A stretch of 64,000 bases of DNA from an uncultured delta proteobacterium (lineage in GTDB: Bacteria; Myxococcota; UBA727; VGSZ01), in NCBI GenBank assembly GCA_963775425.1, contig CAVZJB010000005.1:480001-544000 (forward strand), in the 5' to 3' direction. The notes under the pieces were generated by a model, which saw nothing but the letters and a program-made list of their open reading frames with translations, did no database searches and was not told the DNA's origin. Below are positions 38,841 to 60,227 of this stretch, in pieces. The translations under genes were made by a program, and so were the position numbers. The first letter of the stretch is position 1. Every line of letters starts with the position of its first letter.

Positions 38841-41800
38841 ATGCCTTTTCGCCGTCTCCATGTCTTCACCCTTTTGAGCGCCGCCGCCCTGGCCGTGGCC
38901 TCCGCGGGGTGCAGCGAAAAGATCGAGGAGAAGCAAGCCCAGCTCGGCGGCTCCTGCCTCGGCTGCCACACCGGCATCACGGACATCCATCCCCAGTTCG
39001 CGCTCGCCTGCGTCGACTGCCACGGCGGTCACGACGACGTGCCGCTGCCCGCCGTGGTGGACGTGCGCGACCAGGAGCTGTTGAAGGCGAGCCACGTGCT
39101 GCCGCTGGATCCCGAGATGTGGTGGCCCAACGGCATCGACGACAACGGCGACGGCCGGGTGGACGAGCAGGGCGAGTTCTTCGACGGCCGCGTCGTCGAC
39201 CAGGACGGCAACGCCGGCCTCGCCGAAGGGCGCCAGGCGCCGCGCTTCGAGTTCGACAGCGAGATCAACCGCGACCTGAACTACCTGCGCTTCATCAACC
39301 CGGGTGATCTGCGCGTCGCCGAGGTGAGCTGCGGCGGCCACAACAAGAACGCCAATGCGGCCATGGTCTGCCACGCCGAGACCGTCTACGACGTCCGCCG
39401 CTCCATCATGGCGACCAACGCCGGCGTCTCCGCCGGCGCCCTCTACGGCAACGCCCAGCTCCCCACGGCCGCCGACTACGGCAGCGCCTTCGCGCAGTCG
39501 CAGGTGGGCCAGGACTTCGACGCGCGCAACCCGCGCATCGGCCGCGCCGCCTACACGTTCAACTACGAGGCCATGGACGCGAACTACGACCCCGTGTCCA
39601 ACACCTTCGATCACGATGGGCTGCTCGCGGCGGCCAAGGCCAACCTCGATCCCGACGACGACCTCTACGAGGCCACCGCGGGCGCCGTCAGCGACGACGG
39701 CAGCGCCAAGGACCCGTTCGGCAACCCGCTGGATCCGGGCCCCGGCCTCACCCGCACCGGCAACCAGCTCAAGTTCTTCAATCCGACGGACAAGACCAAC
39801 AACCGCGCCATCGACGTCCTCGAGTACATCGGCAACGGCGCCAACCGCACCTTCCCCCCGCCGGGCACGGGCATCGAGCTGCGCCTCCAGAAGATCCTCG
39901 AGGGCCTCGGCGTCGCGCGCCAGAGCCCCATCCGCAACGCCATCCCCAACGACGGCAAGCCCATCATCAACCCTGTGGACGCGGCGCTGCGCAGCTTCCG
40001 CGCGTACCACGTGCTGAACTTCATGTCGCCGAGCGACAACTTCGGCTTCAAGGACTTCACCACGTCGCCCAACGAGGACGATCCGCCGCCCAACGATCCC
40101 AACGACGTCGAGCTCCAGAACAACAACAACCCGTTCGGGCGCTTCCTGTCGTCAGGCTGCACGTCCTGCCACGTCGAGTACGCCAAGGACGGGCACAACG
40201 AGGAGCCCATCGATCGCACTGTGGCGGACAACGGGCGCCAGCCCGAGACCGCGCTGCCCTTCGGCATCCGCCAGGACCTCGGCCAGCGCGCCTATGCCAA
40301 GCGCCACGAGATCAAGACGGCCGTGCAGCTCAACACCTGCGCGCAGTGCCACGGCTTCGTCACCCGCGTCGACTACGCCGCCGAGGGCAAGTTCGAGCTC
40401 GAGGTCGACTTCACCAACCTCTCGCAGGTGCAGACCATCGGGCCCTTCACGTTCTCCACGCCCAAGACCGCGTGCGTGAACGTGTTCGACAACCTCGCCC
40501 ACTACAAGGACGGCAAGATCCTGAACGAGGGCGAGGGCGTCAGCGAGGATCTCAACAACAACGGTGAGCTCGACGAGGGCGAGGACAAGAACAACAACGG
40601 CTGCCTCGACATCCCCAATCGCGTCGCCCGCAGCGACGCCTTCGACGGGCGCCAGTCCAAGCTCATCTACGGAGGCGCCAACGGCTCGGTCCACCTGCAG
40701 GACATCCACATCGAGGAGGGCATGGCCTGCAGCGACTGCCACGTCACCTCGGTGCACGGCGACTCCAACCTGTACACGCGCAATTGGGACGCGGAGCCCA
40801 TGGAGTGCGAGGACTGCCACGGCACCTCGTACGCCAAGGCCAAGCTCATCTCGTCGGGCCCCAACGGCGGCGACAAGTTCACCGACCCCGTGTGGAACAC
40901 GCCGTTCGGCAAGCCCTGGTTCGAGGAGAAGGACGGCAAGATCATCGAGCACAGCCGCACGCAGGCGGGCCTCGAGTGGGAGGTCGCCCAGCTCGTCGAC
41001 GAGAAGGTCGGCGACGCCAAGACGGCGTACGCCAAGTACGCCCACGAGCAGCCGGCGGAGACCATCCCCAATCCAGGTCGTGAGCAGGAGGCGCGCGCCT
41101 TCGCCCACATGCAGGAGGCGGGTAAGCCCGGCGGCCTCGAGTGCTACTCCTGCCACTCCTCGTGGCAGCCCAACTGCCTCACGTGCCACCTCAAGATGGA
41201 CGTGGGCAAGGCCAAGCAGGAGATCTGGTGGGGTGACGACGACGAGTCTGAGATCTTCTTCCAGCTCTTCAGCTACACGCGCTCGCCCTTCTACCTGGGC
41301 CGCGGCGGCGACGTCGAAGGCAACCGCATCTCGACGTACCGCTCCACCATGCAGACGCACCTGACGGTCACCGCCACCGTCGGCAACCAGGGCTTCACCC
41401 TGCTCGACAACGCCATGGTCGCGTCCAACCAGCACCTGAGCTCGATGGTGTCGAACCCGTACTTCCCGCATACGGTGCGCGTCACCGAGACCAAGTCGTG
41501 CGCGCGCTGCCACACGCTCGAGGACGAGCAGGGACGCATCGAGAACGATCACCTCATCACGGAGGCCACGGGCCAGGGCTCGGGCCGCTACATGAACCTC
41601 GGCGATTGGGGCCTGGTGGCCACCACCAACGGCTTCCAGCAGATCGATCTCAAGGCCGAGGGCGGCACGTTCAACGCGCAGGCCAAGGCCCCCGGGATCA
41701 CCTTCCCCGGCTTCGACTTCTCCGACGTCAACCCGCGCCACGCGGACTTCCTCGTGGGCAACGCCACTGACGTGGCCATGCTCCGCGGCGTCGCCTTCGA

Positions 41801-43172
41801 GGACGGCAGCTCCGACCTCGCCGACGTCGCCATCGTGGCGCACAGCGGCGGCGTCTCCATGGTCGACGTCACCGGTCGCGACAACGTGGGCCTGCCGCCC
41901 ACGGAGATCGCGCGCGTGGACTCGCTCGGCCCGGTGGTCTCCGTCGACGTCATCGACACGGCCGCTTCGCAGTCCAAGCGCTTCGTCGCGGTGACGGACG
42001 AGGAGCTGTGCACCATCGACTTCACGAACGCCCTGCAGACCGACACGGTGGCGCCCGTCATCGACGCCGACGCCGGTCAAGAGGGCGACGACGGCGGCGT
42101 GGTGGACGCGGGCGTGGACGGCTTCCTCCAGGGCACGCGCATCGTCGGCTGCCTGCCGCACGGCCTCGACGCCGTCACCCGCGTCAAGCTCCACGGCCGC
42201 TTCGCGGTGGTGGCGCACAGCCGCGGCGTGACGCTGTTCCAGCTCGCGGACAGCGACGACGCGGCGGTGGTGGACCCCGGCGCGCCGCTGGCCGCCATCG
42301 CGACCTTCGAGACCACGCACCCGGCGCTCGACGTCGAGACCTCCGGCCGCTTCATGTACGTGGCCACGGGCCTCGGCGGCGTGGAGACCTTCGACATGGG
42401 CCCCTTCGTCTACCCGCTGTTCGATCAGGACAGCCACGATCCCCTCCAGGGCAGCACGGCGCGCGTCTCCCAGGCGCTCACCAACCAGCAGCAGGAGGCG
42501 GACACGCGCGGCATCGCCGTCTTCGGCAGCCGGCTGCTCGTGGCCGACGGCAAGAACGGCCTGCGCATCCTCGACATGGCGGTGCCCGCCAATCCGCGGC
42601 TCGAGCGCACCATCCGCGACGTCGCGGGCCAGGCGCCCATCGATCAGGCCACGGCGGTGGTGGTGGGGACGGAGACGGTGCGCAACTACGCGCTCGTCGC
42701 CGACGGCTCCCACGGCATCCGCGCGGTGAACATCACGCCGTCCACGGACCTGCGCCTGCAGCTCAAGGACGCGCTCGATCCGGCCAAGCGGGACGCCACC
42801 CGCGGCTTCCGGCTCTCCGAGGAGCGCTGGGACCCGCTCACGCCGTTCGACCCGAAGAACACGACGCCCAAGGTCTTCACCTACGCGACCAACGGGAACG
42901 CGGTCGCGTTGGCCAAGGGCCTGGCCTTCGACAACATCGCGGACAAGAGCGGCAGGCAGCTCCGGGACGGCTGGAGCATCGGCTCCACGACCCTGGATGA
43001 AGCCACCATCGCCAGAATGCGATCGGTGATCGTCAAAGAGGTCCAAGGTACGGTAGACATCTCCGGTGACGGCCTCGGATGCGTCGTGCGCGCAGGCGAC
43101 GAAAACGATGTGGCCAGGGACCCGGAGGATCAGAACCGATGCCTTCCTGTTCAGTCTCGAGGCGGCGAGTGA
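38841..43172 (+). CDS. Large multiheme c-type cytochrome lipoprotein with C-terminal LVIVD/beta-propeller-like region
   Basis: GAGG then ATG 38841; lipobox ASAGC; 9 CxxCH plus one CX12CH; DxNxDG loops; YVATG.GG, LLVADG.NGL.ILD and ALVADG..GI repeats. Confidence 0.9.
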   Translation: MPFRRLHVFTLLSAAALAVASAGCSEKIEEKQAQLGGSCLGCHTGITDIHPQFALACVDCHGGHDDVPLPAVVDVRDQELLKASHVLPLDPEMWWPNGIDDNGDGRVDEQGEFFDGRVVDQDGNAGLAEGRQAPRFEFDSEINRDLNYLRFINPGDLRVAEVSCGGHNKNANAAMVCHAETVYDVRRSIMATNAGVSAGALYGNAQLPTAADYGSAFAQSQVGQDFDARNPRIGRAAYTFNYEAMDANYDPVSNTFDHDGLLAAAKANLDPDDDLYEATAGAVSDDGSAKDPFGNPLDPGPGLTRTGNQLKFFNPTDKTNNRAIDVLEYIGNGANRTFPPPGTGIELRLQKILEGLGVARQSPIRNAIPNDGKPIINPVDAALRSFRAYHVLNFMSPSDNFGFKDFTTSPNEDDPPPNDPNDVELQNNNNPFGRFLSSGCTSCHVEYAKDGHNEEPIDRTVADNGRQPETALPFGIRQDLGQRAYAKRHEIKTAVQLNTCAQCHGFVTRVDYAAEGKFELEVDFTNLSQVQTIGPFTFSTPKTACVNVFDNLAHYKDGKILNEGEGVSEDLNNNGELDEGEDKNNNGCLDIPNRVARSDAFDGRQSKLIYGGANGSVHLQDIHIEEGMACSDCHVTSVHGDSNLYTRNWDAEPMECEDCHGTSYAKAKLISSGPNGGDKFTDPVWNTPFGKPWFEEKDGKIIEHSRTQAGLEWEVAQLVDEKVGDAKTAYAKYAHEQPAETIPNPGREQEARAFAHMQEAGKPGGLECYSCHSSWQPNCLTCHLKMDVGKAKQEIWWGDDDESEIFFQLFSYTRSPFYLGRGGDVEGNRISTYRSTMQTHLTVTATVGNQGFTLLDNAMVASNQHLSSMVSNPYFPHTVRVTETKSCARCHTLEDEQGRIENDHLITEATGQGSGRYMNLGDWGLVATTNGFQQIDLKAEGGTFNAQAKAPGITFPGFDFSDVNPRHADFLVGNATDVAMLRGVAFEDGSSDLADVAIVAHSGGVSMVDVTGRDNVGLPPTEIARVDSLGPVVSVDVIDTAASQSKRFVAVTDEELCTIDFTNALQTDTVAPVIDADAGQEGDDGGVVDAGVDGFLQGTRIVGCLPHGLDAVTRVKLHGRFAVVAHSRGVTLFQLADSDDAAVVDPGAPLAAIATFETTHPALDVETSGRFMYVATGLGGVETFDMGPFVYPLFDQDSHDPLQGSTARVSQALTNQQQEADTRGIAVFGSRLLVADGKNGLRILDMAVPANPRLERTIRDVAGQAPIDQATAVVVGTETVRNYALVADGSHGIRAVNITPSTDLRLQLKDALDPAKRDATRGFRLSEERWDPLTPFDPKNTTPKVFTYATNGNAVALAKGLAFDNIADKSGRQLRDGWSIGSTTLDEATIARMRSVIVKEVQGTVDISGDGLGCVVRAGDENDVARDPEDQNRCLPVQSRGGE

Positions 43173-44890
43173 AGCTCGCGACCCCGGCCGCCGCCCTGTT
43201 TCTCCTCGTGGGAACGGTGGCGGCGGCGAGGGCGGACGCGCAGACAGTCGATGCGTCCGTAGTTCCCACCTATGTGGACAGCGTGCAGCGCGGCCTTCGC
43301 CTGCGCATGGACCTGTGGGGTCGTGAGGCCCTGATCGGCAACCCCGATCCGCCGGTCCAGCTCATCGTCCCGGATGTCGTCAACGAGAAGAACGACACGG
43401 ACGTGGGCGGCATGGTGATCCTGGGCTGGGACAGGCCCTTCGGCGTCCCGCTGACCACCGATCTCATGGGCGACGTCACGAGCGACATCGGCGGTGACTC
43501 GCCGGTGAGCCCGTTCCTCGACGACACGAGCGTCGCGCCCAAGGCCCACATCTATTCGGCGTTCATCGGGCTGTCGGGGGCGCCGGGCGAGGCGCTCGAG
43601 CCGTTCAAGCTCAACATCGGCCGCATGACACAGGTGAGCGAGTCCCCGATCACCTACGACGGCATCTCCACCGGCGTGAACCTCAAGTTCCCCAAGCTCG
43701 GCTTCCTGAACGCCAAGGTCTGGGGCGGCCTCGACGCGCCCCAGCACCTCGCCGCCGATCCCTTCTCCCGCACCGACGCCAAGTACTACCAGGAGCAGTA
43801 CCAGGACCTCTCCGGCTTCGTGTCGCCCACCGGCGGCAAGGAGATCGTTCGCAGCCCGCTCGACTTCAACGCCGACGGCACCCAGGACCCGAACCTCAAC
43901 GCGGTGTTCGGTCTCGACGTCGAGGGCCGCTTCGCGGGCGTCGGCTTCACGCTCACGCACACCTCCATGCCTGCCGCGGGCAGCATCGTCACAGACGAGG
44001 AGAACAACGTGTTCCTGCCGCTCCAGCGCACCACGCTCGAGGGCAGCTACGGTGACGACAGCGATCTGTTGTCATGGATGGTGGCGGCGGACCTGAAGGC
44101 GTCGGACTTCCTGCCGCGCTCCACCGCGCTCAAGGGCGACGTCCTCACCGGCGACGGCACCACCCGCATCGGCGGCAACGTGACGTACCAGTTCCTCGAC
44201 GACATCTGCGCCTACGACTGCACCTTCCGCGCGTTCGACCCCGCCAACAACATCGATCAGGTCCCCGATCAAGGCGCGGTGCTCACCAACGATCAGGTGG
44301 AGGCGGCGCGGGTGCACGATCAGATCCGCCACCTCAACATCGGACCGGCCAAGCCCAACATCGCCCTCGTCGTCGATGCCGAGCGCCAGCTCCCCGCGGG
44401 CTTCACCGCCCTGTTGCGGGGCCGGGTGCGCCAGCACTTCAACGCGGCCGACCTCGATTACTTCCGCACCAACGTCTACGAGGCGGGCGCGGGGGCGAGC
44501 TGGTCCACGGGCCTCGCGCTCGAGGTCGGCACCGAGGTCTACGGTGGCGCCCTCGACTCCGGCGCCGCCGCGGACAAGGGGCTCGACTACACCCTCGTTC
44601 AGGAAGGGATCACCTCCTACGTCGAGAATCGCACCTGGGTCCGCACCGTCCTTCTGGAGGGGAAGCTGTCGAACCTGGCCGAGGCCTTCGTGCGCAGAGA
44701 GGACATCCAGACCAAGGCGCTCGTCGCCTCCGGCCAGTGGAGCGGCGCCTTCGCCGACACGCTGCGCTACGACGTCATCGACTTCTGGTCCGTCTCCGCC
44801 CGGCTCGACGCGGATGCGCTGTCGCCGGTCGACACGCTGAACGGCTCGGGGTACCTCGGGGCCCTGGTGGCGACCTCACTCAAGTTCTGA
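43169..44890 (+). CDS. Probable outer-membrane beta-barrel (porin partner of the multiheme cytochromes)
   Basis: GTGA overlap; signal peptide ending ARADA; amphipathic beta-strand patterns; C-terminal Phe (ALVATSLKF); no heme motifs; sits between cytochrome genes. Confidence 0.7.
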   Translation: MKLATPAAALFLLVGTVAAARADAQTVDASVVPTYVDSVQRGLRLRMDLWGREALIGNPDPPVQLIVPDVVNEKNDTDVGGMVILGWDRPFGVPLTTDLMGDVTSDIGGDSPVSPFLDDTSVAPKAHIYSAFIGLSGAPGEALEPFKLNIGRMTQVSESPITYDGISTGVNLKFPKLGFLNAKVWGGLDAPQHLAADPFSRTDAKYYQEQYQDLSGFVSPTGGKEIVRSPLDFNADGTQDPNLNAVFGLDVEGRFAGVGFTLTHTSMPAAGSIVTDEENNVFLPLQRTTLEGSYGDDSDLLSWMVAADLKASDFLPRSTALKGDVLTGDGTTRIGGNVTYQFLDDICAYDCTFRAFDPANNIDQVPDQGAVLTNDQVEAARVHDQIRHLNIGPAKPNIALVVDAERQLPAGFTALLRGRVRQHFNAADLDYFRTNVYEAGAGASWSTGLALEVGTEVYGGALDSGAAADKGLDYTLVQEGITSYVENRTWVRTVLLEGKLSNLAEAFVRREDIQTKALVASGQWSGAFADTLRYDVIDFWSVSARLDADALSPVDTLNGSGYLGALVATSLKF

Positions 44891-44912: not shown

Positions 44913-45908
44913 GTGAACCTGCGATCGCTCGCCCCCCTCGGACTCTCCCTGGCAGTCGCCGCCACGTGCGCCGGCGTGGGCGTCGCGTTCGCCGCCCACG
45001 CGGCGCCCCCCGCGCCGCCGCCGGCCGCGCCGCCGCCGCCGGCGGCCACGGGCAACGGCCCGCCCACGGGGATGAACCTCATCGACACCTCGAGCCCCTT
45101 CGACCACGACGTCCACCTGAACCCCGCCAAGATGGGCGGCAAGAAGATGGGCTGCGAGTCCTGCCACAAGATGGTGAACAAGGACGGCACCTGCCCCAAG
45201 CAGGAGGTGCGGTTCCCCGAGCACGACGCCTGCCAGGCGTGCCACACGGCGAACTTCTATACGCAGCCGCTCACCATCTGCACCAACTGCCACAAGGCCA
45301 ACATCTTCCAGAAGCGGCCGCCGCTGCGCGAGCTGACCCGGCAGGTCACGCCGCGCAAGGCGGAGTTCTCGCACCGAAGCCACCTCGATGCGAAGAAGGG
45401 CACGGACTGCACCTCGTGCCACTCGGTGCTCAGGGGCGGCCTCGTCATCGGGCACCCGAGCCACCCGAACTGCTGCCAGTGCCACTCGGGCCCCGGGCTC
45501 AACGGCAAGATCGCCGAGCCGCACATGAACAAGTGCGGCTCCTGCCATGACACGGCGAAGAACGCCGGGCGTCCGCCGTCCACCATCCACGACTTCAGCC
45601 ACAAGATGCACCGCGAAGACCCGCGTACGCATACGTCGGTGGCGTGCCAGCAGTGCCACATCAACATGGTCCAGGCCACGACGCTGCGGCAGATCCGCAT
45701 CCCGCCGATGCCCGTGTGCCTGCAGTGCCATGACGGCTCCGATCCGAACAAGCCGAACCCCAAGAACCCGGCGTGGAGCGGCACGGGCGCGTTCAACTTC
45801 ACCGCGTGCCTGAAGTGCCACCTCCCGGGCAGCATCCAGAACCGCCCGCTGCCTCCGGGCCACCCGGGGGCTCCCACCGCTCCCACCGAGGCGGGGGCCA
45901 ACCCATGA
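44913..45908 (+). CDS. Periplasmic nonaheme cytochrome c (three c7/c3-like triheme modules)
   Basis: Signal peptide; 9 CxxCH; FDHDVH, FSHRSH and FSHKMH each open a group of three hemes. Confidence 0.9.
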   Translation: MNLRSLAPLGLSLAVAATCAGVGVAFAAHAAPPAPPPAAPPPPAATGNGPPTGMNLIDTSSPFDHDVHLNPAKMGGKKMGCESCHKMVNKDGTCPKQEVRFPEHDACQACHTANFYTQPLTICTNCHKANIFQKRPPLRELTRQVTPRKAEFSHRSHLDAKKGTDCTSCHSVLRGGLVIGHPSHPNCCQCHSGPGLNGKIAEPHMNKCGSCHDTAKNAGRPPSTIHDFSHKMHREDPRTHTSVACQQCHINMVQATTLRQIRIPPMPVCLQCHDGSDPNKPNPKNPAWSGTGAFNFTACLKCHLPGSIQNRPLPPGHPGAPTAPTEAGANP

Positions 45909-52147: not shown

Positions 52148-52177
52148 TTGTCGCGCCCGAGGCCGCCGCAGTAGGCT
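52148..52177 (+). promoter_or_regulatory. Putative sigma70 promoter TTGTCG-N18-TAGGCT, possibly giving a leaderless transcript
   Basis: The -10 hexamer ends 7 nt before ATG 52185; no Shine-Dalgarno sequence. Confidence 0.4.
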
Positions 52178-52184
52178 GGCCGCA

Positions 52185-53627
52185 ATGACCGACGTCTCCG
52201 ACGAGTGGACGGCGCTTCTCAAGGCCATCCCCTTCCTCTCCGCGCTCCCGGAAAAGACCCTGAAGGACAGGGTCATCCTCGGAAAGATCCCGCAGGCCGA
52301 GGTGCCCGCCTCCCTCGTCGAGGTAGGCGACGGCGAGCTGGTGATCCGCGAGGGGGACTTCGGCGACACCTTCTACGTCATCGTCAACGGCACCTTCGTC
52401 GTCGAGGTGTGGAACGACGACGGCGTCGCCGTCGAGGTCACGCGCATCGGCCGCGGCTCCTACTTCGGTGAGCTCGCCATGATCGGCCGCGGCATGCGCG
52501 CGGCGTCGGTGAAGGCGGTCGGCGCGGGCGCGCAGGTGCTCGAGATCTACAAGGGCCCGTTCGACCGCATCATCAAGGACGACAAGACCAACTCGGTGAA
52601 GAACGCGCTCGAGGCCATCTACGCGCGGCGCACCATCGAGAAGTTCGTGCGTGACAACGAGTACCTGCGCGAGCTGTCCGAGGTCGACAAGAAGCTGATC
52701 GTCGACACCGGCAAGCTTCACCGCGTGGAGGCCTTCCACGACGTGTACAAGGCCGGTGATCCGCCCAAGAGCTTCTACCTCGTGCGCCAGGGCTTCCTGA
52801 AGGTGTGGCGCATGGAGGGCGAGGTGGAGAGCATCCTCGCCTACCTGCGCGACAAGGACTTCTTCGGCGACCTCGAGCTCGTCGAGGGGCGCCAGCGCAC
52901 GGCCACGGTGACGTCGATGGAGCCGGTTGAGCTCGTGGAGCTGCCGCGCTCGGTGTTCGCCGGCATCTACCAGCGCTACCCCGACCTCATCAAATCGTTC
53001 CGCCGCTACGAGCTCGACCGCCGCGCCGAGCTGCCGCAGTTGTCGAGCAAGACCGGCATGATGTTCGTCAAGGACCTCATCGAGTCCGGCATGGGCCAGG
53101 CGCGCTCGGCGCTCATCATCAACATGGACCTGTGCACCCGCTGCGGCAATTGCGTGCAGGCGTGCAGCGACCTCCACGACGGGTACTCGCGGCTCATCCG
53201 CCGCGGCAAGAAGCTCACCCACCGTGACGACGGCGGCGGCCTCGAGAACCTCTTCTTCCCGAACTCCTGCGTGCATTGCCGCACGCCCGACTGCATGGCC
53301 GGCTGCCCCGTCGGCTCCATCGCGCGCGACAAGGACGGCGAGGTCTACATCAAGGACTTCTGCGTCGGCTGCGGCGCGTGCGCCAAGGGCTGCGAGTTCG
53401 GCAACATCTCGATGGTGGTCGCCAAGAACGCCGACGGCACCGAGAAGAAGATGGCCGGCAGCAACAAGGTCGTGCGCAAGGCCTCCAAGTGCGACATCTG
53501 CAAGGGCTACGAGCAAGCCAACTGCGTCTACAACTGCCCGCAGGGCGCCATCATCCGCATCGACCCCAACGAGTACTTCGAGGAGCTCCACCGCACGGTG
53601 GACATCGTCTCGATGGCGCAGGGCTGA
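52185..53627 (+). CDS. Tandem cyclic-nucleotide-binding domains fused to a 4x[4Fe-4S] DmsB/NrfC-like ferredoxin
   Basis: FGELAM...RAASV and FGDLEL...RTATV; CTRCGNCVQAC, CVHC...CMAGCP, CVGCGACAKGC, KCDIC...CVYNCP; no signal peptide. Confidence 0.9.
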   Translation: MTDVSDEWTALLKAIPFLSALPEKTLKDRVILGKIPQAEVPASLVEVGDGELVIREGDFGDTFYVIVNGTFVVEVWNDDGVAVEVTRIGRGSYFGELAMIGRGMRAASVKAVGAGAQVLEIYKGPFDRIIKDDKTNSVKNALEAIYARRTIEKFVRDNEYLRELSEVDKKLIVDTGKLHRVEAFHDVYKAGDPPKSFYLVRQGFLKVWRMEGEVESILAYLRDKDFFGDLELVEGRQRTATVTSMEPVELVELPRSVFAGIYQRYPDLIKSFRRYELDRRAELPQLSSKTGMMFVKDLIESGMGQARSALIINMDLCTRCGNCVQACSDLHDGYSRLIRRGKKLTHRDDGGGLENLFFPNSCVHCRTPDCMAGCPVGSIARDKDGEVYIKDFCVGCGACAKGCEFGNISMVVAKNADGTEKKMAGSNKVVRKASKCDICKGYEQANCVYNCPQGAIIRIDPNEYFEELHRTVDIVSMAQG

Positions 53628-53677: not shown

Positions 53678-55990
53678 ATGCGCGCCCCCGCCCTCTTCGT
53701 CATCGCCGCCGCGTTGGGCTCCCTCGCGGGCGGCTGCTCCTCGTGCGGCGCGCCCGCGGCGTCGGACGCCGGCCCGGGCGGCGGCGAGGGCGAAGGGGAA
53801 GGCGAAGGCGAAGGAGAGGGCGACGTCGACGCCGGGACCCCCGACGCCGGGCCGCAAGACGCGGGCCCGCCCAATCCGAACGCCGTGGGCCTCGACGCGC
53901 GCCCGTCGAACCCCACGTGCCTCGCGCAGGACCGGCCGCCCACGGGGAGCACCGTCGACTTCGAGGAGCCCTGGCCCGAGCTGAACGTCGTCTCGCCGGT
54001 CTTCATGCTCCAGGAGCCCGGCACCACGACGATGTACGTCGTGCAGCGCGGCGGGAAGGTGGTGCGCTTCGACAAGGCCGACGCCGCCGTCACAAACCCC
54101 GAGGTCTTCGCGGACATCACGGCGAACGTGCAGGCCAACGACGTCGGCAACGACGAGCGCGGTCTCCTGGGCATGGCCTTCCATCCGGACTGGCCGCAGG
54201 TGCAGGAGGTCTTTTTGAGCTACACCGGCTTCGGCGCCGGCGGCGCCCTCGTGGACCGCGTGTCGCGCTTCACGCTCGCGGCCGACGGCACCGTCGACGT
54301 CGGCAGCGAGCAGATCCTCCTCGACACCGCCGACTTCGCCGGCAACCACAACGGCGGGATGATCGCGTTTTCGCCCACGGACGCCTGCCGCGGCTGCCTG
54401 TACTACGGCGACGGCGACGGCGGGCAGGCCGACGACCCGCACCAAAACGGCCAGTCCGGGCAGACGCACCTCGCCAAGATCCTGCGCATCGACATCGACA
54501 GGACCGACCCGGGCCTCCCCTACGCCATCCCGCCGGACAACCCGTTCGTCGACGACGCCGACTTCCTCCCCGAGATCTACGCGTACGGGGTGCGCAACCC
54601 GTGGCGCTGGAGCTTCGACCGCGACAGCGGCGACCTCTGGGTCGGCGACGTCGGGCAGGGCGCCGTGGAGGAGGTCGACAAGATCCTCGCCGGCGGCAAC
54701 TACGGCTGGGACATCCTCGAGGGCGACCAGTGCCACGAGCAGACGTCGGGGAGCTGCAATCAGGGCGGCTTCGAGGCGCCCATCACCACGTACACCCACG
54801 CCGGCGGCCGCAACGCGATCGTCGGCGGCTACGTCTACCGGGGCAGCGCCATGCCCGCGCTCGTGGGCACGTATTTGTTCGCGGACTTCGGCACCGGTGA
54901 GATCTTCGCGCTGTTCTTCGACACCCAGGGCAACGCGGCGCCGCAGCGCGTGGGCGACTCGCCGAACAACATCGCGAGCTTCGCCGAGGACGCCGACGGC
55001 GAGCTCTACGTCCTCGACCACGCCACCGGCATCGTTCGCAAGCTCGTAGCTGCGGGCCCGCAGCCGCCGGACAACTTCCCGCGTCTGCTGTCGCAGACCG
55101 GGTGCGTCGACCCGGCCGACCCGGCGGCGCCGGCGGGCGGGCTCATCCCGTACGGGGTCAACCATGTCCTGTGGTCCGACGGCGCCGTGAAGGAGCGCTT
55201 CATGGGCCTGCCCGACGGGCTGAAGGCCACCATCCTCGACGACGGCGACATCGACTTCCCCGTGGGCACGGTCCTGATGAAGACCTTCAAGGTCGGCGGC
55301 GTGCGCGTGGAGACGCGGCTGTTGATGCACCACGACGACGGCGACTGGGGCGGCTACACCTACGAGTGGAACGACGCCGGCACCGACGCCACCCTGCTGC
55401 CGCCGGCAGGCAAGATCAAGGCGCTGCCAAACGGCCAGCTCTGGACGTACCCGTCGCGCAACGGCTGCCTCGCCTGCCACACCGCCGCCGCGCACCGCGC
55501 GCTCGGTCCCGAGGTGGCGCAGCTCAACGGCGGCTTCGTCTATCCCGACGGCCGCTTCGCGAACCAGCTCCATACCCTCGACGCCATCGGCGTGCTCGAC
55601 GCGCCGCTGCCGGGCGCCCTGGCGGACCTGCCGGCGTTCCCGCCCGTCGACGACGCCGCGGCGTCGCCCGAGGCCGTGGCGCGGGCGTACCTGCACGTGA
55701 ACTGCTCCATCTGCCATCGCCCGGGCGGCATCGGCGTCGCCGACACGGACTGGCGCTTCACCACGGCGTTTCAGGACATGGCCTTGTGCAACGCCGAGCC
55801 CACCGAGGGTGACCTCGGCGTCGCCGGCGCCAAGCGCCTCGTCCCCGGAGACCCCGCGCGCTCCCTCATCTCGCTGCGCATGAAGCGTTTGGGCGCCGGC
55901 CGCATGCCGCTCCTCGGCAGCGTCGTCGTGGACCCCCAGGGCACCGCGGCCATCGACCGTTGGATCACGTCGCTGTCGTCATGTCCCTGA
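53678..55990 (+). CDS. Lipoprotein: PQQ-dependent sugar dehydrogenase (GSDH-like propeller) fused to a diheme cytochrome c domain
   Basis: LAGGC lipobox; (GE)n/DAG linker; ERGLLGMAFHP, NHNGG, YAYGVRNPWR, GNYGW; LWSDGA.KER, CLACH, YLHVNCSICH, RMP. Confidence 0.88.
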   Translation: MRAPALFVIAAALGSLAGGCSSCGAPAASDAGPGGGEGEGEGEGEGEGDVDAGTPDAGPQDAGPPNPNAVGLDARPSNPTCLAQDRPPTGSTVDFEEPWPELNVVSPVFMLQEPGTTTMYVVQRGGKVVRFDKADAAVTNPEVFADITANVQANDVGNDERGLLGMAFHPDWPQVQEVFLSYTGFGAGGALVDRVSRFTLAADGTVDVGSEQILLDTADFAGNHNGGMIAFSPTDACRGCLYYGDGDGGQADDPHQNGQSGQTHLAKILRIDIDRTDPGLPYAIPPDNPFVDDADFLPEIYAYGVRNPWRWSFDRDSGDLWVGDVGQGAVEEVDKILAGGNYGWDILEGDQCHEQTSGSCNQGGFEAPITTYTHAGGRNAIVGGYVYRGSAMPALVGTYLFADFGTGEIFALFFDTQGNAAPQRVGDSPNNIASFAEDADGELYVLDHATGIVRKLVAAGPQPPDNFPRLLSQTGCVDPADPAAPAGGLIPYGVNHVLWSDGAVKERFMGLPDGLKATILDDGDIDFPVGTVLMKTFKVGGVRVETRLLMHHDDGDWGGYTYEWNDAGTDATLLPPAGKIKALPNGQLWTYPSRNGCLACHTAAAHRALGPEVAQLNGGFVYPDGRFANQLHTLDAIGVLDAPLPGALADLPAFPPVDDAAASPEAVARAYLHVNCSICHRPGGIGVADTDWRFTTAFQDMALCNAEPTEGDLGVAGAKRLVPGDPARSLISLRMKRLGAGRMPLLGSVVVDPQGTAAIDRWITSLSSCP

Positions 55991-56158: not shown

Positions 56159-57085
56159 ATGGCAAGCACGACAGCACCCGCCCCTGCCGCGCCGCTGAAG
56201 CCGAAGAGCAGCAAGAAGCTCTCCGACAAGACACTCAAGGAGCGCGCGTTCCGCTGGGACAAGCTCGCCGCGTGGCTCGCGGCGTTCTTCGCCCTGGCCG
56301 CCGTCTGCGGCCTGTGGGCGCTCTCCAAGTACGTCCTCGACGCGCCGTCGCGGGGCGGGCGCGGCACCGGCGGCGACACCATCGTCGGCTACACCCTCGC
56401 GGGCATCACCCTCATCCTCTACGGCGTCGTCGCCGCGTACTCGTGGCGCCACAAGCGGCGCCGGCAGAAGCGCGCGATGACCCGGGTCTGGATGGAGGTG
56501 CACCTGGCGTTCGGCATGGTCGCCGGCGTCACGGCCATCCTCCACTCGGGCCCCAAGCTCGGGGCGCCCATCCACGGCGCGTTCCTCATCGCCTGGGAGC
56601 TCCTCATCCTCACGGGCATCGTCGGCAAGCTCATCAGCGTCTACGTGCCGCGCCGGCTCACGCGCATCGAGGACGAGGCCCTGCTGGTGGAGGACGTGGC
56701 CGAGCGCCAGAAGGCCATGCGCCTCGAGATCGAGCAGCTCCTCACGGACTGCGACGACAAGCTGGTGCACATCGTCAACGACGTCATCCCCAAGAAGATC
56801 AAGGCGCCCGACTGGTACGGCAAGCGCCGCATGAAGCGCCACGACGTCGTGGAGAGCGTCTACAAGGCCATCGACGGCGAGGGCATGCTCGCCCGCGGCG
56901 AGGTCCCCGCCGACAAGAAGGACTGGCTCAAGCGCATGATCACGTGCCTGGTCGAGGAGGAGTTCCTCGATCGCATGCTCACCTACCACTACGTGCTGCG
57001 CGCGTGGGTGCCCGTCCACGTGGCGCTCACCACGCTGTGCTTCCCCTGGCTCATCTTCCACGTCGTCAGCGTGTTCTTGATCTAG
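56159..57085 (+). CDS. Inner-membrane protein with two H-x13-H helices (putative di-heme b, ferric-reductase-like TM domain)
   Basis: About 5 TMs; WMEVHLAFGMVAGVTAILH and WVPVHVALTTLCFPWLIFH. Confidence 0.78.
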   Translation: MASTTAPAPAAPLKPKSSKKLSDKTLKERAFRWDKLAAWLAAFFALAAVCGLWALSKYVLDAPSRGGRGTGGDTIVGYTLAGITLILYGVVAAYSWRHKRRRQKRAMTRVWMEVHLAFGMVAGVTAILHSGPKLGAPIHGAFLIAWELLILTGIVGKLISVYVPRRLTRIEDEALLVEDVAERQKAMRLEIEQLLTDCDDKLVHIVNDVIPKKIKAPDWYGKRRMKRHDVVESVYKAIDGEGMLARGEVPADKKDWLKRMITCLVEEEFLDRMLTYHYVLRAWVPVHVALTTLCFPWLIFHVVSVFLI

Positions 57086-57095: not shown

Positions 57096-60000
57096 ATGTT
57101 CTGCCTGAAGGTCGTCGACGGACTGTCTGCCGGTATCGAGATCCTGCTCAAGCAGGGAGGCACCACCACCGTCGGCCGCGCCGAGGACGCCGACGGTCAG
57201 ATCGAAGACGGCCTGTGCTCCGGCAAGCACTTCGAGATCGAGTGGACGGCGGCGGGGATGATCATCAAGGACCTCGGGTCCTTGAACGGCGTCTTCGTCA
57301 ACGGCGAGCGCGTCCGCGAAAACCGCCAGGTCAAGCGCGGCGACTTCATCCAGGCCGGGACCACGCTGATGGAGATCGCCGTCAGCTCGGGCAACGTCGA
57401 GGTCAAGGTCAGCGAGCGCGAGCCGGCCATCAGCGGCAAGGCCACGATGATGATGGACGCGGCGGCGGTGCAGGACGCCATCGCGCGCACCCGCGCCCAG
57501 GCGCGCGTGAAGGCCAAGGAGCTCAACCGCACCGTCATCAAGACGCAGATGATGACCAAGGCCGAGATCGCCAAGCTGATGACCGATCAGCCGGTGAGCA
57601 AGGCCAAGACCATGGTCCTGCAGGCGCTCCCGCCGGAGATCCTCGCGGGCACCAACAACGCCGGCCTGGCCATCCTGCAGAAGCTCCTCGCCGACGTCAC
57701 GCCCGACAACCCCACCGTGTGCGTGGTCAAGAAGGGCGCGTCCATCACGCCCTACGCCAAGAGCGTCATCACGCTCGGCCGTGACGCGCGCAACGACATC
57801 CCGCTCATCAGCGACGACGTCTCCGGCAGCCACGCCCGCATCGTGAAGGAGCCGTCGGGGCGCTTCGAGGTCATCGACGAGGGCTCCACCAACGGCACCT
57901 TCGTCAACGGCAAGCGCGTCGTGCGCCAGTACCTGCAAAACGGCGACACCATCCAGCTCGGCCAGTGGACCGGGCCCGTGGCGCTCTCTGCCGGGCGCAT
58001 GGCCATGGAGCTCAACCGCGAGGGCGTCTCCGTCAAGGACGACAAGGGCGTCATCAAGGTCCTCAAGGTCGGCGACGAGGGCGCCAAGGAGTGGGACCCG
58101 CTTCTGCGTGAAGCCGTGCGCGCGCCGATGCTCGTCAAGAGCGACCGTGGCGAGAAGTTCAAGAAGAAGAAGAAGGGCAAGAGCGCCGACGACATCGCGT
58201 TCCGCGCCACCGGTGACGTCCAGCGCGGGGCGATGAAGAGCCGGCTCGCGTGGGCCGGCGTCCTGACGTCGCCGATCGTCATCGCGCTGTTCTTCGGCGG
58301 CTACTTCGTCGTCTCGCTGCTGCACAAGGGCTCCACCTTCGATGCGCTCTCCCCGGGCGCCATCACCAACGCGCACGCGAGCGAGACGTTCATCGCCAAG
58401 GCCAAGGAGGCGGCGTCGGCGGAGAACAAGTTCGGCGGTCACACCACCTGCTTCGCGTGCCACCCCGGGCTCAACCGCGAGGTGACGGACACCGCCTGCT
58501 CGAGCTGCCACTCCCAGGTACCGACGTCGACGCACACCGAGGTGGGGCTCACCTGCTTCGACTGTCACGGCGAGCACAACGGCCGCAACTTCTCGCCGAC
58601 GGCGCAGGCGCGGCTCGGCTGCGTCGGCTGCCACCAGGGCGACCCGCACGCGCGCCTCTTCGACAAGGGCGAGGGGAAGAAGGCGCGGGCCAAGGCGCCG
58701 GTGATCACGCAGGCGCAGCTCAACATCGACAAGGCCGAGGTGCACGAGAAGCACTTCAACATCGAGGGGCGCTGCGTCGCGTGCCACGCCGTCGCCGAGG
58801 GTGCGACGGCGCTGACCAGCCCGGAGGAGATCGCCAAGCAAGCGCGCAAGTCGTGCGGCATCTGCCACGCCGCCACCGACCCGCAGCCCGACGAGTGCGT
58901 GCGTTGCCACGTGCAGCACCCGAAGGACGCCGCGCTCGTCGAGTTCCTGAAGGCGCAGCCCACCAACGAAGACGACATCAAGCAGGCGCGCATCGATCCC
59001 GGCACCGTGCCCATCTTCCTCGCGCTCGCCTTCGGCATGACGCTGCCGCTCGTGCTCGCGGCGGTGGTCAAGCCGAAGCCGAAGCAGAAGAAGGAGCAGG
59101 TCGTCGAGGAGAAGGCGGGCGCCAAGCCTGCGGGCGCTCCCGCCGGCGCCGCGCCGCCTCCGCCCGGCCCGCCGGGCGCGCCGCCGCCCCCTCCCGGGGC
59201 GCGGGCTCCGGGGCCACCTCCCCCGCCACCGGGCGGGGCGCCGCCGCCTCCGCCGCCGGGCGGGGCGCCGCCGCCGCCGCCGCCACCGGGCGGGCGCGCG
59301 GCGCCGCCGCCGCCTCCGCCGCCGGGCGGCATGGCGCCGCCTCCGCCGCCTCCGCCGGGGGGCGCGCCGCCGCCGCCGCCTCCGCCGCCGGGGGGCCGCG
59401 TCGCGCCGCCGCCTCCGCCGCCGCCCGGCGGGGTCCCCGCGCCGCCGCCGCCGCCCGGTGGCGTGCCGCCTCCGCCTCCGCCCCCGGGAGGGATGGCGCC
59501 GCCTCCGCCTCCGCCGCCGGGCGGTGTGCCGCCTCCGCCCCCTCGTGCCGCGCCGCCGCCTCCCCCGGGAGTCCCGCCGCCGCCGCCGCCCCCCGGAGGC
59601 CCGCCGCCGCCGCCGCCCGCCGCGGCCCGGCCAGCGCCCGCGGCGCCGCCGCCTCCGCCCCCGCCCGCCGCGGTGGCGCCTCCGCCGCCTCCTGCGGCGC
59701 GGCCGGCGCCGCCGCCGCCACCCCCTCCCGCCGCGCGGCCAGCGCCGCCTCCGCCGCCTCCCGCGGCGCGGCCGGCGCCTCCACCGCCGCCGCCGGCAGC
59801 CGCACCTCCGCCGCCGGCGCCCCGGCCGGTGGCGCCGGCGCCGGTGCCCGCGCCTCCTCCGCCGGCTCCGGTGGTGCGCGCGGGGACCAAGGCCGCGATG
59901 CAGATCCCGGCACAGCCCGCCCCGGTGCCGGCGCAGCCCGCGGTGCGCGCGGGGACCAAGGCCGCGATGCAGATCCCCGACCCGCGCCAGGCGCCACAGC

Positions 60001-60227
60001 CGCCACAGCCGCCGCAGCAGGGGCAGCCGCCGCCACAGCAGCCGCCACCGCAGGGGCAGTTCCGCAACCCGACGACGGCCAAGGGGACGATGCTCGGGAC
60101 CATGCCCGTCGTCGACGAGGACATGATCCGGCGCGCCCAGCAGCAGATCAACCAGGGCAAGCCCGGCACGCAGGTCTCCGGCAAGGGCGGCGCCGCGCCG
60201 CTGCCGCCGGACAAGGACAAGAAGTAG
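57096..60227 (+). CDS. 2xFHA, TM, heptaheme cytochrome c, TM, poly-proline tail
   Basis: VGR..SGKH..GSLNGVFVNG and LGR..SGSH..STNGTFVNG; two hydrophobic helices flank 7 CxxCH; long GGxPPPPPPP region. Confidence 0.9.
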   Translation: MFCLKVVDGLSAGIEILLKQGGTTTVGRAEDADGQIEDGLCSGKHFEIEWTAAGMIIKDLGSLNGVFVNGERVRENRQVKRGDFIQAGTTLMEIAVSSGNVEVKVSEREPAISGKATMMMDAAAVQDAIARTRAQARVKAKELNRTVIKTQMMTKAEIAKLMTDQPVSKAKTMVLQALPPEILAGTNNAGLAILQKLLADVTPDNPTVCVVKKGASITPYAKSVITLGRDARNDIPLISDDVSGSHARIVKEPSGRFEVIDEGSTNGTFVNGKRVVRQYLQNGDTIQLGQWTGPVALSAGRMAMELNREGVSVKDDKGVIKVLKVGDEGAKEWDPLLREAVRAPMLVKSDRGEKFKKKKKGKSADDIAFRATGDVQRGAMKSRLAWAGVLTSPIVIALFFGGYFVVSLLHKGSTFDALSPGAITNAHASETFIAKAKEAASAENKFGGHTTCFACHPGLNREVTDTACSSCHSQVPTSTHTEVGLTCFDCHGEHNGRNFSPTAQARLGCVGCHQGDPHARLFDKGEGKKARAKAPVITQAQLNIDKAEVHEKHFNIEGRCVACHAVAEGATALTSPEEIAKQARKSCGICHAATDPQPDECVRCHVQHPKDAALVEFLKAQPTNEDDIKQARIDPGTVPIFLALAFGMTLPLVLAAVVKPKPKQKKEQVVEEKAGAKPAGAPAGAAPPPPGPPGAPPPPPGARAPGPPPPPPGGAPPPPPPGGAPPPPPPPGGRAAPPPPPPPGGMAPPPPPPPGGAPPPPPPPPGGRVAPPPPPPPGGVPAPPPPPGGVPPPPPPPGGMAPPPPPPPGGVPPPPPRAAPPPPPGVPPPPPPPGGPPPPPPAAARPAPAAPPPPPPPAAVAPPPPPAARPAPPPPPPPAARPAPPPPPPAARPAPPPPPPAAAPPPPAPRPVAPAPVPAPPPPAPVVRAGTKAAMQIPAQPAPVPAQPAVRAGTKAAMQIPDPRQAPQPPQPPQQGQPPPQQPPPQGQFRNPTTAKGTMLGTMPVVDEDMIRRAQQQINQGKPGTQVSGKGGAAPLPPDKDKK

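Follow-up and report, generated by a model that had tools for sequence, protein, structure and literature searches.

A predicted two-module electron conduit with cyclic nucleotide-binding and FHA domains, encoded by seven linked genes of an uncultured myxococcote

Most porin-cytochrome systems predicted in bacteria other than Shewanella and Geobacter lack an established route for electrons across the inner membrane. The question of such a route is raised by a gene cluster at positions 38,841 to 60,227 of a 64,000-nucleotide (nt) stretch of DNA, hereafter the window, from an uncultured delta proteobacterium of the phylum Myxococcota (contig CAVZJB010000005.1 of assembly GCA_963775425.1, positions 480,001 to 544,000, forward strand). 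Do the cytochrome genes in the left (G1-G4) and right (G7-G10) blocks of this cluster form a single system and, if so, where would electrons enter it and which way would they run? The conserved system consists of seven genes (G1-G4, G7, G9 and G10) with 39 c-haem motifs, and we consider it somewhat better than an even bet, with a rough probability of 0.55, that their products form an electron conduit of two modules spanning the entire Gram-negative envelope, which would run outward and independently of quinones. Because the window is 72% G+C, gene models were picked by third-position GC content (GC3), and domains were assigned by Pfam and NCBIfam scans of the window proteins. The genes are listed below with coordinates, strand and length in amino acids (aa); TM denotes a transmembrane segment and cNMP a cyclic nucleotide monophosphate.

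38841-43172, plus strand: G1, 1443 aa, with a lipobox, nine CXXCH motifs and an LVIVD repeat
43139-44890, plus strand: G2, 583 aa, without a Pfam match
44913-45908, plus strand: G3, 331 aa, with nine CXXCH motifs
45902-47950, plus strand: G4, 682 aa, with LysM and 14 CXXCH motifs
about 48163-50526, plus strand: G5, a YfhO-like membrane protein
50558-52228, minus strand: G6, a PMT-like membrane protein
52185-53627, plus strand: G7, 480 aa, with two cNMP_binding domains and four Cys clusters
53678-55990, plus strand: G8, 770 aa, with a GSDH domain, an SO2930-type dihaem domain and a lipobox
56159-57085, plus strand: G9, 308 aa, without a Pfam match, with five TMs
57096-60227, plus strand: G10, 1043 aa, with two FHA domains, a TM, seven CXXCH motifs, a second TM and a Pro-rich tail

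The CXXCH motifs of five of these proteins total 41 (9+9+14+2+7), the number of c-type haem motifs given in an earlier reading of this DNA made from its letters alone (the first-pass annotation). Shuffling the residues of each protein 2000 times gave a mean of at most 0.08 motifs and a maximum of 2. Every domain named in that annotation was likewise recovered by Pfam. Its description of eight co-oriented genes holds for their orientation but not for their contiguity, as G5 and the minus-strand G6 interrupt the two blocks. With the start codons chosen, the divergent G6 and G7 share 44 nt at their 5' ends (52185-52228), and probably one of these start codons lies deeper inside its gene.

An alignment of G7 with 18 homologues (19 sequences) was used to scan genomes, and 14 loci (L001-L014) were retrieved with 10-kb flanks. 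All came from metagenome-assembled genomes (MAGs), mostly labelled Myxococcota or 'Deltaproteobacteria', with one labelled Nitrospinaceae (L014). The window proteins were compared with these loci by tblastn, and counterparts were counted at E<=1e-5. Among close relatives (L001-L006; G7 identity 69-71%), a G4 homologue was directly followed by a G7 homologue on the same strand in all six of the loci with sequence at that point. The order was an uninterrupted G2-G3-G4-G7-G9-G10 in L002, and G1-G2-G3-G4-G7, an open reading frame (ORF) of 320 aa, then G9-G10 in L006, while L005 showed G1-G2-G3-G4-G7 and an ORF of 319 aa, with unrelated genes beyond. In the closest relative of all, L012 (G7 83% identical), G4 and G7 are convergent and a PP2C/cNMP gene lies between them. 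The product of that gene (L012:541-1809, minus strand) has a PP2C Ser/Thr phosphatase and a cNMP-binding domain in one polypeptide and so joins the signal types of G7 and G10.

In five more distant loci (L007-L011; G7 42-46% identical), a G3 homologue stood divergently beside a gene in which G7 and G9 are fused, and this was followed by a homologue of the FHA/7-haem protein G10. Overall, G9 was fused or adjacent to G7 in nine of the 14 loci (L002, L006, L007-L011, L013 and L014). The G7 homologue was fused to, or stood directly before, the G9 homologue in L002, L007-L011, L013 and L014; in the window the two are separated by G8 and in L006 by the 320-aa ORF. An FHA/7-haem G10 homologue came after G9 in 8/14 loci (L002, L006, L007-L011 and, as a variant, L013), and a G3 homologue was likewise found in 8/14. 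The gene-neighbourhood search that the first-pass annotation had named as a check thus recovered the G4-G7, G7-G9 and G9-G10 adjacencies among the 14 loci. Its view that the left and right blocks belong together was borne out by relatives, in which the G4-G7 adjacency (6/6) and the G7-G9 fusions mark one conserved neighbourhood. The feature is real and its parts belong together. In L011 (L011:11374-12330), the G7-G9 fusion is interrupted by a frameshift near 11.8 kb, past which the G9 part goes on in a different frame; judging by its name, the contig comes from long-read assembly, and the frameshift may be a sequencing error.

In G7, tandem cNMP-binding domains at about residues 49-270 (Pfam cNMP_binding, E 7e-35 over two stretches) are followed by a ferredoxin module (Fer4 families) with four Cys clusters, i.e., C317..C327, C362..C374, C393..C403 and C436..C451 (nt 53133-53537). 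By PDB search, the N-terminal part resembled the tandem cyclic nucleotide-binding (CNB) domains of PKA-R and PKG (best E 5e-19), and the C-terminal part resembled the four-cluster electron-wire subunits HycB3/HycB4, PsrB (2vpw_B) and ArrB. No TM segment or signal peptide was detected by scan; G7 is a cytoplasmic protein with a chain of four predicted [4Fe-4S] clusters, and its 16 Cys are all invariant in the 19 aligned sequences. The phosphate-binding cassette of cNMP domains has the consensus F-G-E-[LM]-A ... R-x-A-[ST]. In 19/19 sequences the first domain (CNB-A) kept both the Arg and the core G-[EQ]-[LM]-A, with the leading Phe replaced once; the Arg of the second (CNB-B) was kept in 12/19, these being the 12 unfused forms, window G7 included. 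The score of G7 against PF13247 was 24.5 bits (cut-off 26.2), and this domain is among the precomputed domains of most G7 homologues.

The homologues of G7 fell into a short group (47 clusters, 461-514 aa, 54-88% identity) and a long group (34 clusters, P0049-P0082, 734-803 aa, 41-47% identity) that carries a C-terminal extension. In the two long forms tested, this extension was homologous to G9 (BLASTP E 5e-12 and 5e-15) and kept both of its H-x13-H pairs. G7 and G9 are, in many organisms, one polypeptide. A further fusion was seen in L014 (L014:8405-11122), where a G7 homologue of 906 aa comprises FAD_binding_6, NAD_binding_1 and Fer2 (2Fe-2S) domains, three cNMP domains and the four-cluster ferredoxin; genes for a G9 homologue and a 10-haem cytochrome come after it. 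Longer G7 forms (841-2400 aa) were also sought, and as this search, which is weak evidence, gave two weak matches only, the FNR-type fusion is known from L014 alone.

The partner in these fusions, G9, has five separate hydrophobic segments in a hydropathy scan. Its AlphaFold2 (AF2) model has a predicted local distance difference test (pLDDT) score of 72.5 and helices at residues 20-60, 75-101, 107-129, 136-162 and 251-307. The two H-x13-H helices announced in the first-pass annotation are present, as pairs H115/H129 and H287/H301, and each is part of a longer motif: W111-x3-H115-x13-H129 on TM3 (nt 56489-56545) and W283-x3-H287-x13-H301 on TM5 (nt 57005-57061). TM4 carries the motif T152-G-I-V-G156. 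Searching 1.84 billion representatives (50% identity) with a profile built from ten G9-type sequences gave 4263 matches at E<=1e-3 and 2306 at E<=1e-10. Among the 150 best matches, H115, H129, H287 and H301 were present in 148/148, 148/148, 147/147 and 146/146 aligned rows, respectively, and all four His were found in each of the 112 deep-search rows that cover all four columns. The Trp before the His was kept in 143/148 and 146/147 rows, and in the [ST]GxxG motif the first position was S or T in 143/148, with G153 in 147/148 and G156 in 148/148.

Pfam scanning of 42 of the best 150 (32 longer, 10 stand-alone) gave a recurrent domain partner for the longer proteins: 17 of the 32 had cNMP, Fer4 and G9 regions, 3 had Fer4 and G9 without cNMP, and 12 were without a Pfam match. 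The recurrent partner of G9 is therefore the four-cluster ferredoxin module, and the cNMP domains are an optional addition to Fer4 plus G9. Many members of the family stand alone, at about 270-300 aa. No match to PF01794 (ferric reductase/NOX) was found at E<=1 in any of ten G9-type members, and ESM Atlas searches with G9 returned only 'hypothetical protein' clusters without Pfam assignments.

As for topology, the cytoplasmic G7 part of the fusions lies ahead of TM1, and the Arg/Lys-rich loop between TM2 and TM3 would lie inside, so TM3 and TM5 should run parallel. H115 and H287 would then sit near the cytoplasmic face and H129 and H301 near the periplasmic face, as in dihaem cytochromes b. 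On the motif, its conservation and this topology, the four His of these parallel helices are most likely the ligands of two b-haems, with one haem near each face of the membrane, and we propose that G9 is a dihaem b transmembrane electron carrier of the kind predicted as the inner membrane protein (IMP) of the PCC3 and PCC4 clusters discussed below.

Directly after G9, G10 opens with two FHA domains at about residues 5-95 and 225-289 (Pfam FHA, E 2.5e-36 over two stretches). A TM scan placed TM1 at 388-406 and TM2 at 640-658, bracketing a haem domain (Pfam Cytochrome_C7 and Cytochrom_c3_2) with CXXCH at residues 452, 468, 487, 509, 560, 587 and 601 (nt 58449-58922). As the two hydrophobic helices flank this domain, the haems are taken to be periplasmic and the FHA domains and the tail cytoplasmic. 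In 8/8 aligned homologues, all seven CXXCH and seven further His are invariant. FHA domains contact phosphothreonine (pThr) through G-R, S-x-x-H and N-G residues; these were invariant in 8/8 homologues in the first FHA domain of G10 (G27/R28, S42, H45 and N64/G65) and in the second (G228/R229, S243, H246 and N266/G267).

The Pro-rich cytoplasmic tail of G10, at about residues 690-960 (59139-59843), consists of degenerate repeats of 27-69 nt. It is missing from the distant homologues (583-601 aa), and L013 has Fer4 and Pyr_redox_2 domains in its place. That homologue (L013:11428-15135) reads two FHA domains, TM, seven CXXCH and TM, with Fer4 and Pyr_redox_2 on the cytoplasmic side; its ORF is of 1236 aa, and the true start is probably near residue 205. 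Some 30 kb from the cluster, a gene for an FHA-domain sigma-54 activator is directly followed by a Ser/Thr protein kinase gene (5938-8956), a pair that is ordinary for Myxococcota and a possible source of pThr marks read by FHA domains.

Complex modelling of adjacent pairs, another check named in the first-pass annotation, was run for G9 with residues 370-670 of G10 and two haems, and it spoke weakly in favour of a contact. Over three runs the interface score (ipSAE) had a median of 0.46, and the best of three controls scored 0.00, with at least 73% contact agreement between runs and a partner pLDDT of at least 56. In the calibration of such scores, which our own alignments and the haems make approximate here, the mark was reached by 58/80 solved complexes and 2/110 mismatched pairs over all scores, and at scores of 0.60 or below by only 7/80 solved complexes together with both mismatches. 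The modelled contact is thus a small addition to the synteny evidence and no proof.

The left block encodes what would be the outer part of the system. G1 has a signal peptide ending in a lipobox Cys, nine CXXCH against a shuffle mean of 0.012, and a C-terminal LVIVD-repeat region of beta-propeller type (Pfam Cytochrome_C7 and LVIVD). Homologues stood upstream of G2 in L005 and L006 (52-53% identity), and no match to PDB sequences was found at E<=0.01. We propose that G1 is a lipoprotein, a multihaem cytochrome of the outer surface, a location read from the lipobox only. In another phylum, the Nitrospinaceae locus L014 independently pairs the inner module with a G1-like 10-haem LVIVD protein.

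G2, whose start codon is at 43079 or 43139, has a signal peptide and a C-terminal Phe and belongs to no Pfam or NCBIfam family (E<=0.01). Its AF2 model, built on a 26-row alignment, had a pLDDT of 71, a predicted TM-score (pTM) of 0.66 and 26 strand elements. By Foldseek, this model gave 358 PDB matches at E<=0.001. The top matches listed were almost all outer-membrane barrels, including MOMP, AlgE, the FimD usher and chitoporin, and no Mtr complex was described among those listed (ranks to 50 of 358). With TM-scores as low as 0.2-0.44, G2 would be a barrel yet no close copy of any solved one. The model supports the beta-barrel that had been a guess in the first-pass annotation; G2 is a predicted outer-membrane beta-barrel, and its role as a porin sheath is proposed. 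None of its 57 homologues is functionally named at source, the named ones being 'hypothetical protein'. L014 also has an upstream ORF, possibly for a barrel, whose product has a signal peptide and ends in Phe. By hhalign, the G2 profile had no detectable relationship to this ORF of L014 or to a 981-aa ORF of L013 (probabilities 0.2 and 0.1).

G3 (Pfam Cytochrome_C7 and Cytochrom_CIII) is a periplasmic 9-haem cytochrome c and part of the widely conserved core. Its homologues are 51-55% identical in L002, L005 and L006; those of L007-L011, divergent from the G7-G9 fusion, are 30-36% identical (E 1e-45 to 1e-50), and the three that were gene-called each have nine CXXCH. G4 is laid out as an N-terminal anchor or signal, a LysM region, a Pro/Ala linker and a 14-haem domain, with Pfam matches to LysM (E 1.9e-10), Cytochrome_C7, Cytochrom_c3_2 and Mtrc-MtrF_II-IV_dom (35.8 bits, cut-off 30). 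The LysM region is kept in L002 and L005. G4 is proposed to be a periplasm-spanning wire pinned to the cell wall by LysM. Immediately upstream of G1, a plus-strand gene (37522-38676) encodes an SLT-domain lytic transglycosylase. A wall-cutting enzyme beside a LysM-anchored, envelope-spanning assembly may be no coincidence; the related loci start inside G1.

The remaining genes of the cluster stand apart from this set. No homologue of G5, G6 or G8 was found in any of the 14 loci by tblastn (E<=1e-5), and the GC content of G5 and G6 is 0.75-0.78 against 0.66-0.69 for G1-G4. For these reasons the three genes are read as insertions; they look inserted in this genome, outside the conserved set. G5 and G6 were accordingly rejected as members. 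So was G8, with its counterpart missing from 14/14 loci, and the place that the first-pass annotation gave in the system to this protein, as a dehydrogenase/diheme lipoprotein dependent on pyrroloquinoline quinone (PQQ), is thereby withdrawn. G8 combines a GSDH (PQQ-type sugar dehydrogenase) propeller with an SO2930-family dihaem cytochrome c (TIGR03806, 251.6 bits, cut-off 313.3). In L003-L006, its slot is filled by the ORF of about 320 aa, which has a weak transglutaminase-like (DUF553) match and is missing from the window. G5 and G6 (48163-52228) resemble GT-C-type membrane glycosyltransferases and look like an insertion at the G4/G7 junction. Just past the stop codon of G4, an 18-nt tandem repeat (47980-48272; 16.4 copies, 81% matches) forms, in the G5 frame, a Pro/Ala/Trp-rich repeat before the first hydrophobic segment.

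Upstream of G1, a minus-strand gene (35315-37627) encodes a PAS/PAS hybrid histidine kinase. A scan of 42-61.5 kb for sigma-70-type promoters and for terminators returned no promoter-like site and 10 terminator-like sites (shuffle mean 5.4), none of them convincingly placed.

How, then, would the seven proteins work together? In the widely conserved inner module, the four [4Fe-4S] clusters of G7, docked on or fused to G9, would pass electrons to the two b-haems of G9, from there to the membrane-anchored periplasmic 7-haem domain of G10, and on to the soluble 9-haem cytochrome G3. In the outer module, specific to this Myxococcota clade, the LysM-pinned 14-haem G4 would carry charge across the periplasm to the G2 barrel, with the 9-haem lipoprotein G1, at the outer membrane. 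Beyond G9, this order of carriers follows predicted location only. NAD(P)H via a flavoprotein, or else ferredoxin, would thereby reduce an external acceptor in NOX-type fashion, bypassing the quinone pool. The flavoprotein fusions of L014 and L013, which are independent and on two different subunits with one example each, suggest NAD(P)H as a plausible partner in the cytoplasm and speak against a role tied to quinones alone.

Outward flow is the most likely direction, on reasoning and not on data, because flow inward to low-potential Fe-S would be uphill and against the membrane potential and because the fused modules resemble sites of NAD(P)H entry. An outward path would drain reducing power and membrane potential, which offers a rationale for a cytoplasmic cNMP sensor in G7 and pThr-reading FHA domains in G10. 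Gating of the conduit by cNMP or pThr is only proposed, on the intact binding motifs and the PP2C-cNMP gene of L012.

Several observations weigh against such an outward, quinone-independent and gated conduit. At the level of gene order, five of the 14 loci are without G9 or G10 near G7 (L001, L003, L004, L005 and L012), with 1.7 to 10 kb of sequence present beyond G7 in the first four. The split of the window cluster by G5/G6, with G6 on the opposite strand, and by G8 means that at least two promoters are needed. The distant loci L007-L011 have no porin, G1 or G4 homologue within 10 kb. As no outer-membrane component lies near their inner module, this module is taken to be the older, more general part, and it clearly also works without an adjacent outer module. 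At the level of the proteins, window G7 and G10 are without an NAD(P)H or flavin domain, and the CNB-B Arg is replaced by Tyr in 7/7 fused forms. G9 itself matched no haem-protein family, with nothing relevant in Pfam up to E=1; DUF4405 (PF14358; cut-off 26.7 bits) appeared only below threshold in its relatives, i.e., in 2/10 alignment members (best E 4.8e-4) and 4/10 stand-alone relatives (E 5e-5 to 6e-4). The G9 profile found nothing below E=2 among PDB sequences, and its model had a best E of 0.45 and TM-scores below 0.3 by Foldseek against the PDB, a weak test of fold given the moderate confidence of the model; G9 thus has no place among the solved folds searched.

To our knowledge, the known Mtr and Pcc conduits are fed from the quinone pool via CymA, ImcH or CbcL and have no cytoplasmic Fe-S partner. 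They share with the left block the side-by-side arrangement of a barrel, a periplasmic cytochrome of about 330 aa (compare G3) and a multihaem lipoprotein (compare G1), as described for MtrCAB of Shewanella and OmaB-OmbB-OmcB of Geobacter (PMC4282303; PMC4245776). The likeness stops at this level: G2 is in no MtrB/PioB or other Pfam or NCBIfam porin family, G3 and G4 match generic c3/c7 models only, apart from the Mtrc-MtrF_II-IV_dom match in G4, which leaves no recognizable decahaem MtrA/DmsE-type or OmaB-type partner, and G1, with its LVIVD propeller region, has no relative in the PDB.

In the inner membrane, the Tmc and Hmc complexes of sulfate reducers offer a closer logic. These complexes, which have no catalytic site of their own, join a multihaem cytochrome c in the periplasm to a membrane cytochrome b and an Fe-S protein in the cytoplasm, and probably carry electrons from periplasm to cytoplasm through their c, b and Fe-S centres. 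G10, G9 and G7 would follow the same logic of electrons crossing the inner membrane. We know of no signalling domain or outer-membrane part in these complexes. G9 had no NCBIfam match to the Hmc, Tmc or Dsr membrane subunits, and the scores of G7 against HmcB and DsrO (24.6 and 45.4 bits) were far below the cut-offs, as for a generic four-cluster ferredoxin, with no CCG domain.

Four His on two TM helices, spaced for two b-haems as in G9, are also described for the NOX/FRD (PF01794) and DUF4405/MsrQ-like proteins (PMC5566968), and a purified DUF4405 protein with four central His has been shown to bind haem b (PMC11334425). NOX/FRD proteins likewise have a cytoplasmic electron-input module fused or docked, and the L014 homologue of G7 even has FAD/NAD(P)H domains. 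They differ from G9 in having six TMs, where G9 has five and a cytoplasmic helical insert of about 110 aa, and in using FAD alone as input and O2, Fe(III) or MsrP as output, where we find a four-cluster Fe-S input and a multihaem cytochrome output.

The nearest published relatives are predictions. He et al. (2017; PMC5566968) described, in Fe(II) oxidizers, the predicted clusters PCC3 and PCC4, composed of a porin, multihaem cytochromes (MHCs) and an IMP of about 300 aa that crosses the membrane five times and bears SGXXG on its TM4 and one WX3HX13H motif on each of TM3 and TM5. The authors proposed that the IMP binds two b-haems as a quinone-reactive cytochrome b and that the clusters form a conduit across the whole envelope, for which inward flow was modelled; overall, the IMPs of PCC3 and PCC4 share no significant homology. 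PCC4 subgroup II has an Fe-S gene (pfam13247) immediately ahead of the IMP gene, and in one genome the two are annotated as a fusion, whereas subgroup I is without an Fe-S gene (PMC5566968). PCC3 was still called 'predicted' in a pangenome study of 2023 (PMC9900912). The words cyclic nucleotide, cNMP, FHA, LysM and Myxococc are all missing from the main text of PMC5566968, and besides it no paper using the motif names SGXXG/WX3HX13H was found in the literature searched.

By motifs alone, G9 has all three features of the PCC3/PCC4 IMP (five TMs in 308 aa, both WX3HX13H motifs, and SGXXG as TGIVG), and the G7/G9 order or fusion of relatives reproduces the subgroup II arrangement of an Fe-S gene upstream of the IMP. 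The PCC3 set of porin, extracellular MHC, periplasmic MHC and IMP has its counterparts in G2, G1, G3/G4 and G9, with G1 assigned to the outside by its lipobox only. The cytochromes themselves differ: PCC4 has three periplasmic ones of 4, 5 and 10 haems and no extracellular one, against 9, 14 and 7 haems plus a 9-haem lipoprotein in the window, and the PCC3 MHCs are very haem-rich and of low complexity (medians 34 and 21), against 9 haems in 1443 aa for G1, 9 in 331 for G3 and 14 in 682 for G4. The two accounts also part on the electron source, since a quinone-reactive IMP was proposed there and the present fusions suggest that electrons enter from cytoplasmic Fe-S centres or NAD(P)H.

A preprint on Ferrigenium straubiae, a betaproteobacterial Fe(II) oxidizer, describes an 'NHC', a membrane-anchored nonahaem cytochrome with a cytosolic FHA domain, whose gene adjoins those for a 5-TM protein without an InterPro match and a cytosolic 4Fe-4S protein (bioRxiv 10.64898/2026.01.22.701106). 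The trio was expressed in all four conditions tested and was assigned no function in the section that presents it; the authors believe the FHA-multihaem combination to be unreported (bioRxiv 10.64898/2026.01.22.701106). By description only, this is the same trio as G10, G9 and G7. The Ferrigenium cytochrome has nine haems and one TM, with one FHA domain mentioned, where G10 has seven haems, two TMs and two FHA domains; that section of the preprint mentions no cNMP domains, His motifs or fusions and describes no porin block beside the trio.

The first-pass annotation had stated that no characterized system with this architecture was known. We too found no characterized system with these domain combinations in the literature searched, but the architecture itself had already been published as a prediction, in PCC3/PCC4 and in the Ferrigenium trio. 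Of the outcomes that the annotation had named as refuting it, unlinked blocks in relatives and a failed barrel prediction were not seen, and a match to a characterized complex was seen only by half, in these predictions. Judged from its sequence, the cluster belongs, as a variant from Myxococcota, to a predicted class of conduits that span the envelope. New in it are the fusion of a cNMP sensor to the Fe-S subunit, the LysM-anchored 14-haem protein, the combination of these with the FHA-cytochrome G10 and the Myxococcota setting, as well as the NAD(P)H-flavoprotein fusions in relatives and, with them, the re-reading of the 5-TM protein as a cytoplasm-facing, quinone-independent carrier.

Of the alternatives, the one that survives best, which we nonetheless regard as unlikely, runs the same carriers in the opposite direction, with Fe(II), Mn(II), reduced humics or a partner cell as the electron source and the cytoplasmic Fe-S chain as the recipient. 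The published relatives speak for it and so against outward flow, as they come mostly from Fe(II) oxidizers, in which flow would be inward: PCC3/PCC4, with the same kind of 5-TM protein, were modelled in this way (PMC5566968), and the expressed Ferrigenium trio belongs to such an organism (bioRxiv 10.64898/2026.01.22.701106). Against it, transfer from Fe(II)-level potentials to [4Fe-4S] or NAD(P)+ would be strongly uphill, besides opposing the membrane potential. The FNR-like (L014) and Pyr_redox_2 (L013) fusions fit NAD(P)H as donor at least equally, and the 64-kb window shows no sign of lithotrophic carbon fixation. The Hmc/Tmc precedent, itself probably running inward, counts on the side of uptake.

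Less probable again, in our judgement, is that G9 is a quinone-reactive cytochrome b joining the menaquinone pool, as CymA, ImcH and CbcL do, with G7 in an accessory or regulatory part. Two H-x13-H helices are also a signature of quinone-reactive cytochromes b, and PCC4 subgroup I does without the Fe-S gene altogether (PMC5566968); the lack of a dehydrogenase domain in window G7 and the many stand-alone family members fit this idea as well. Set against it, the four-cluster ferredoxin is fused N-terminally in 20/32 of the longer G9-family members scanned and in the 34 long G7 clusters, and a regulator would need no four-cluster wire. L014 adds FAD/NAD(P)H and 2Fe-2S modules upstream of that same wire, and no quinone-site family was detected in G9 by NCBIfam or Pfam.

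The signalling domains could also be the point of the system and not its control. The haem and Fe-S chain would then act as a redox-sensing signal transducer that reports the redox state of the periplasm or the cell exterior to the cytoplasm, through a redox-dependent change of cNMP binding or buffering in G7, with the FHA domains and Pro-rich tail of G10 recruiting signalling partners. Two kinds of signalling domain with intact binding residues at the cytoplasmic ends, the PP2C-cNMP gene inside the L012 cluster, the PAS hybrid histidine kinase just upstream in the window and the absence of a catalytic dehydrogenase from the window cluster are all in keeping with this. We nevertheless find it quite improbable: 39 c-haems, a porin and a surface lipoprotein would be a heavy investment for a sensor, Fer4-G9 forms without cNMP domains exist (3/32), and the NAD(P)H-flavoprotein fusions point to bulk electron flow.

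That the blocks G1-G4 and G7-G10 are unrelated and mere neighbours, as the 4.2 kb between them with two unrelated genes, one on the other strand, and the lack of G9 or G10 after G7 in L003-L005 might suggest, is the least credible reading of all and already contradicted by synteny, i.e., by G4 and G7 as immediate same-strand neighbours in 6/6 close relatives, by the full colinear sets of L002 and L006, by G3 beside the G7-G9/G10 module in 5/5 distant loci, and by G5 and G6, which differ in GC and have no counterpart in any locus.

Returning to the two-module outward conduit, its implications reach beyond this cluster. The 5-TM family to which G9 belongs is very large and has no Pfam model. With a good deal of doubt, we suggest that the large WX3HX13H family comprises unrecognized dihaem carriers whose native partner would be a cytoplasmic four-cluster ferredoxin in place of the quinone pool, and that the cluster described here may be a NOX-like, quinone-independent system exporting electrons from NAD(P)H or ferredoxin to the cell surface, gated by cAMP/cGMP at the Fe-S subunit and by Ser/Thr phosphorylation through the FHA-cytochrome, which would make it the first second-messenger-gated extracellular conduit. 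The repeated fusions to Fe-S modules, and in some cases to NAD(P)H-flavoprotein modules, argue for a direct path from cytoplasm to periplasm that bypasses quinones, and the intact cNMP and FHA domains at the cytoplasmic ends make regulated electron export a concrete hypothesis. If true, this would constitute a new entry route to extracellular electron transfer together with a handle for switching it, and would point to a part for uncultured Myxococcota in the redox cycling of metals or humics.

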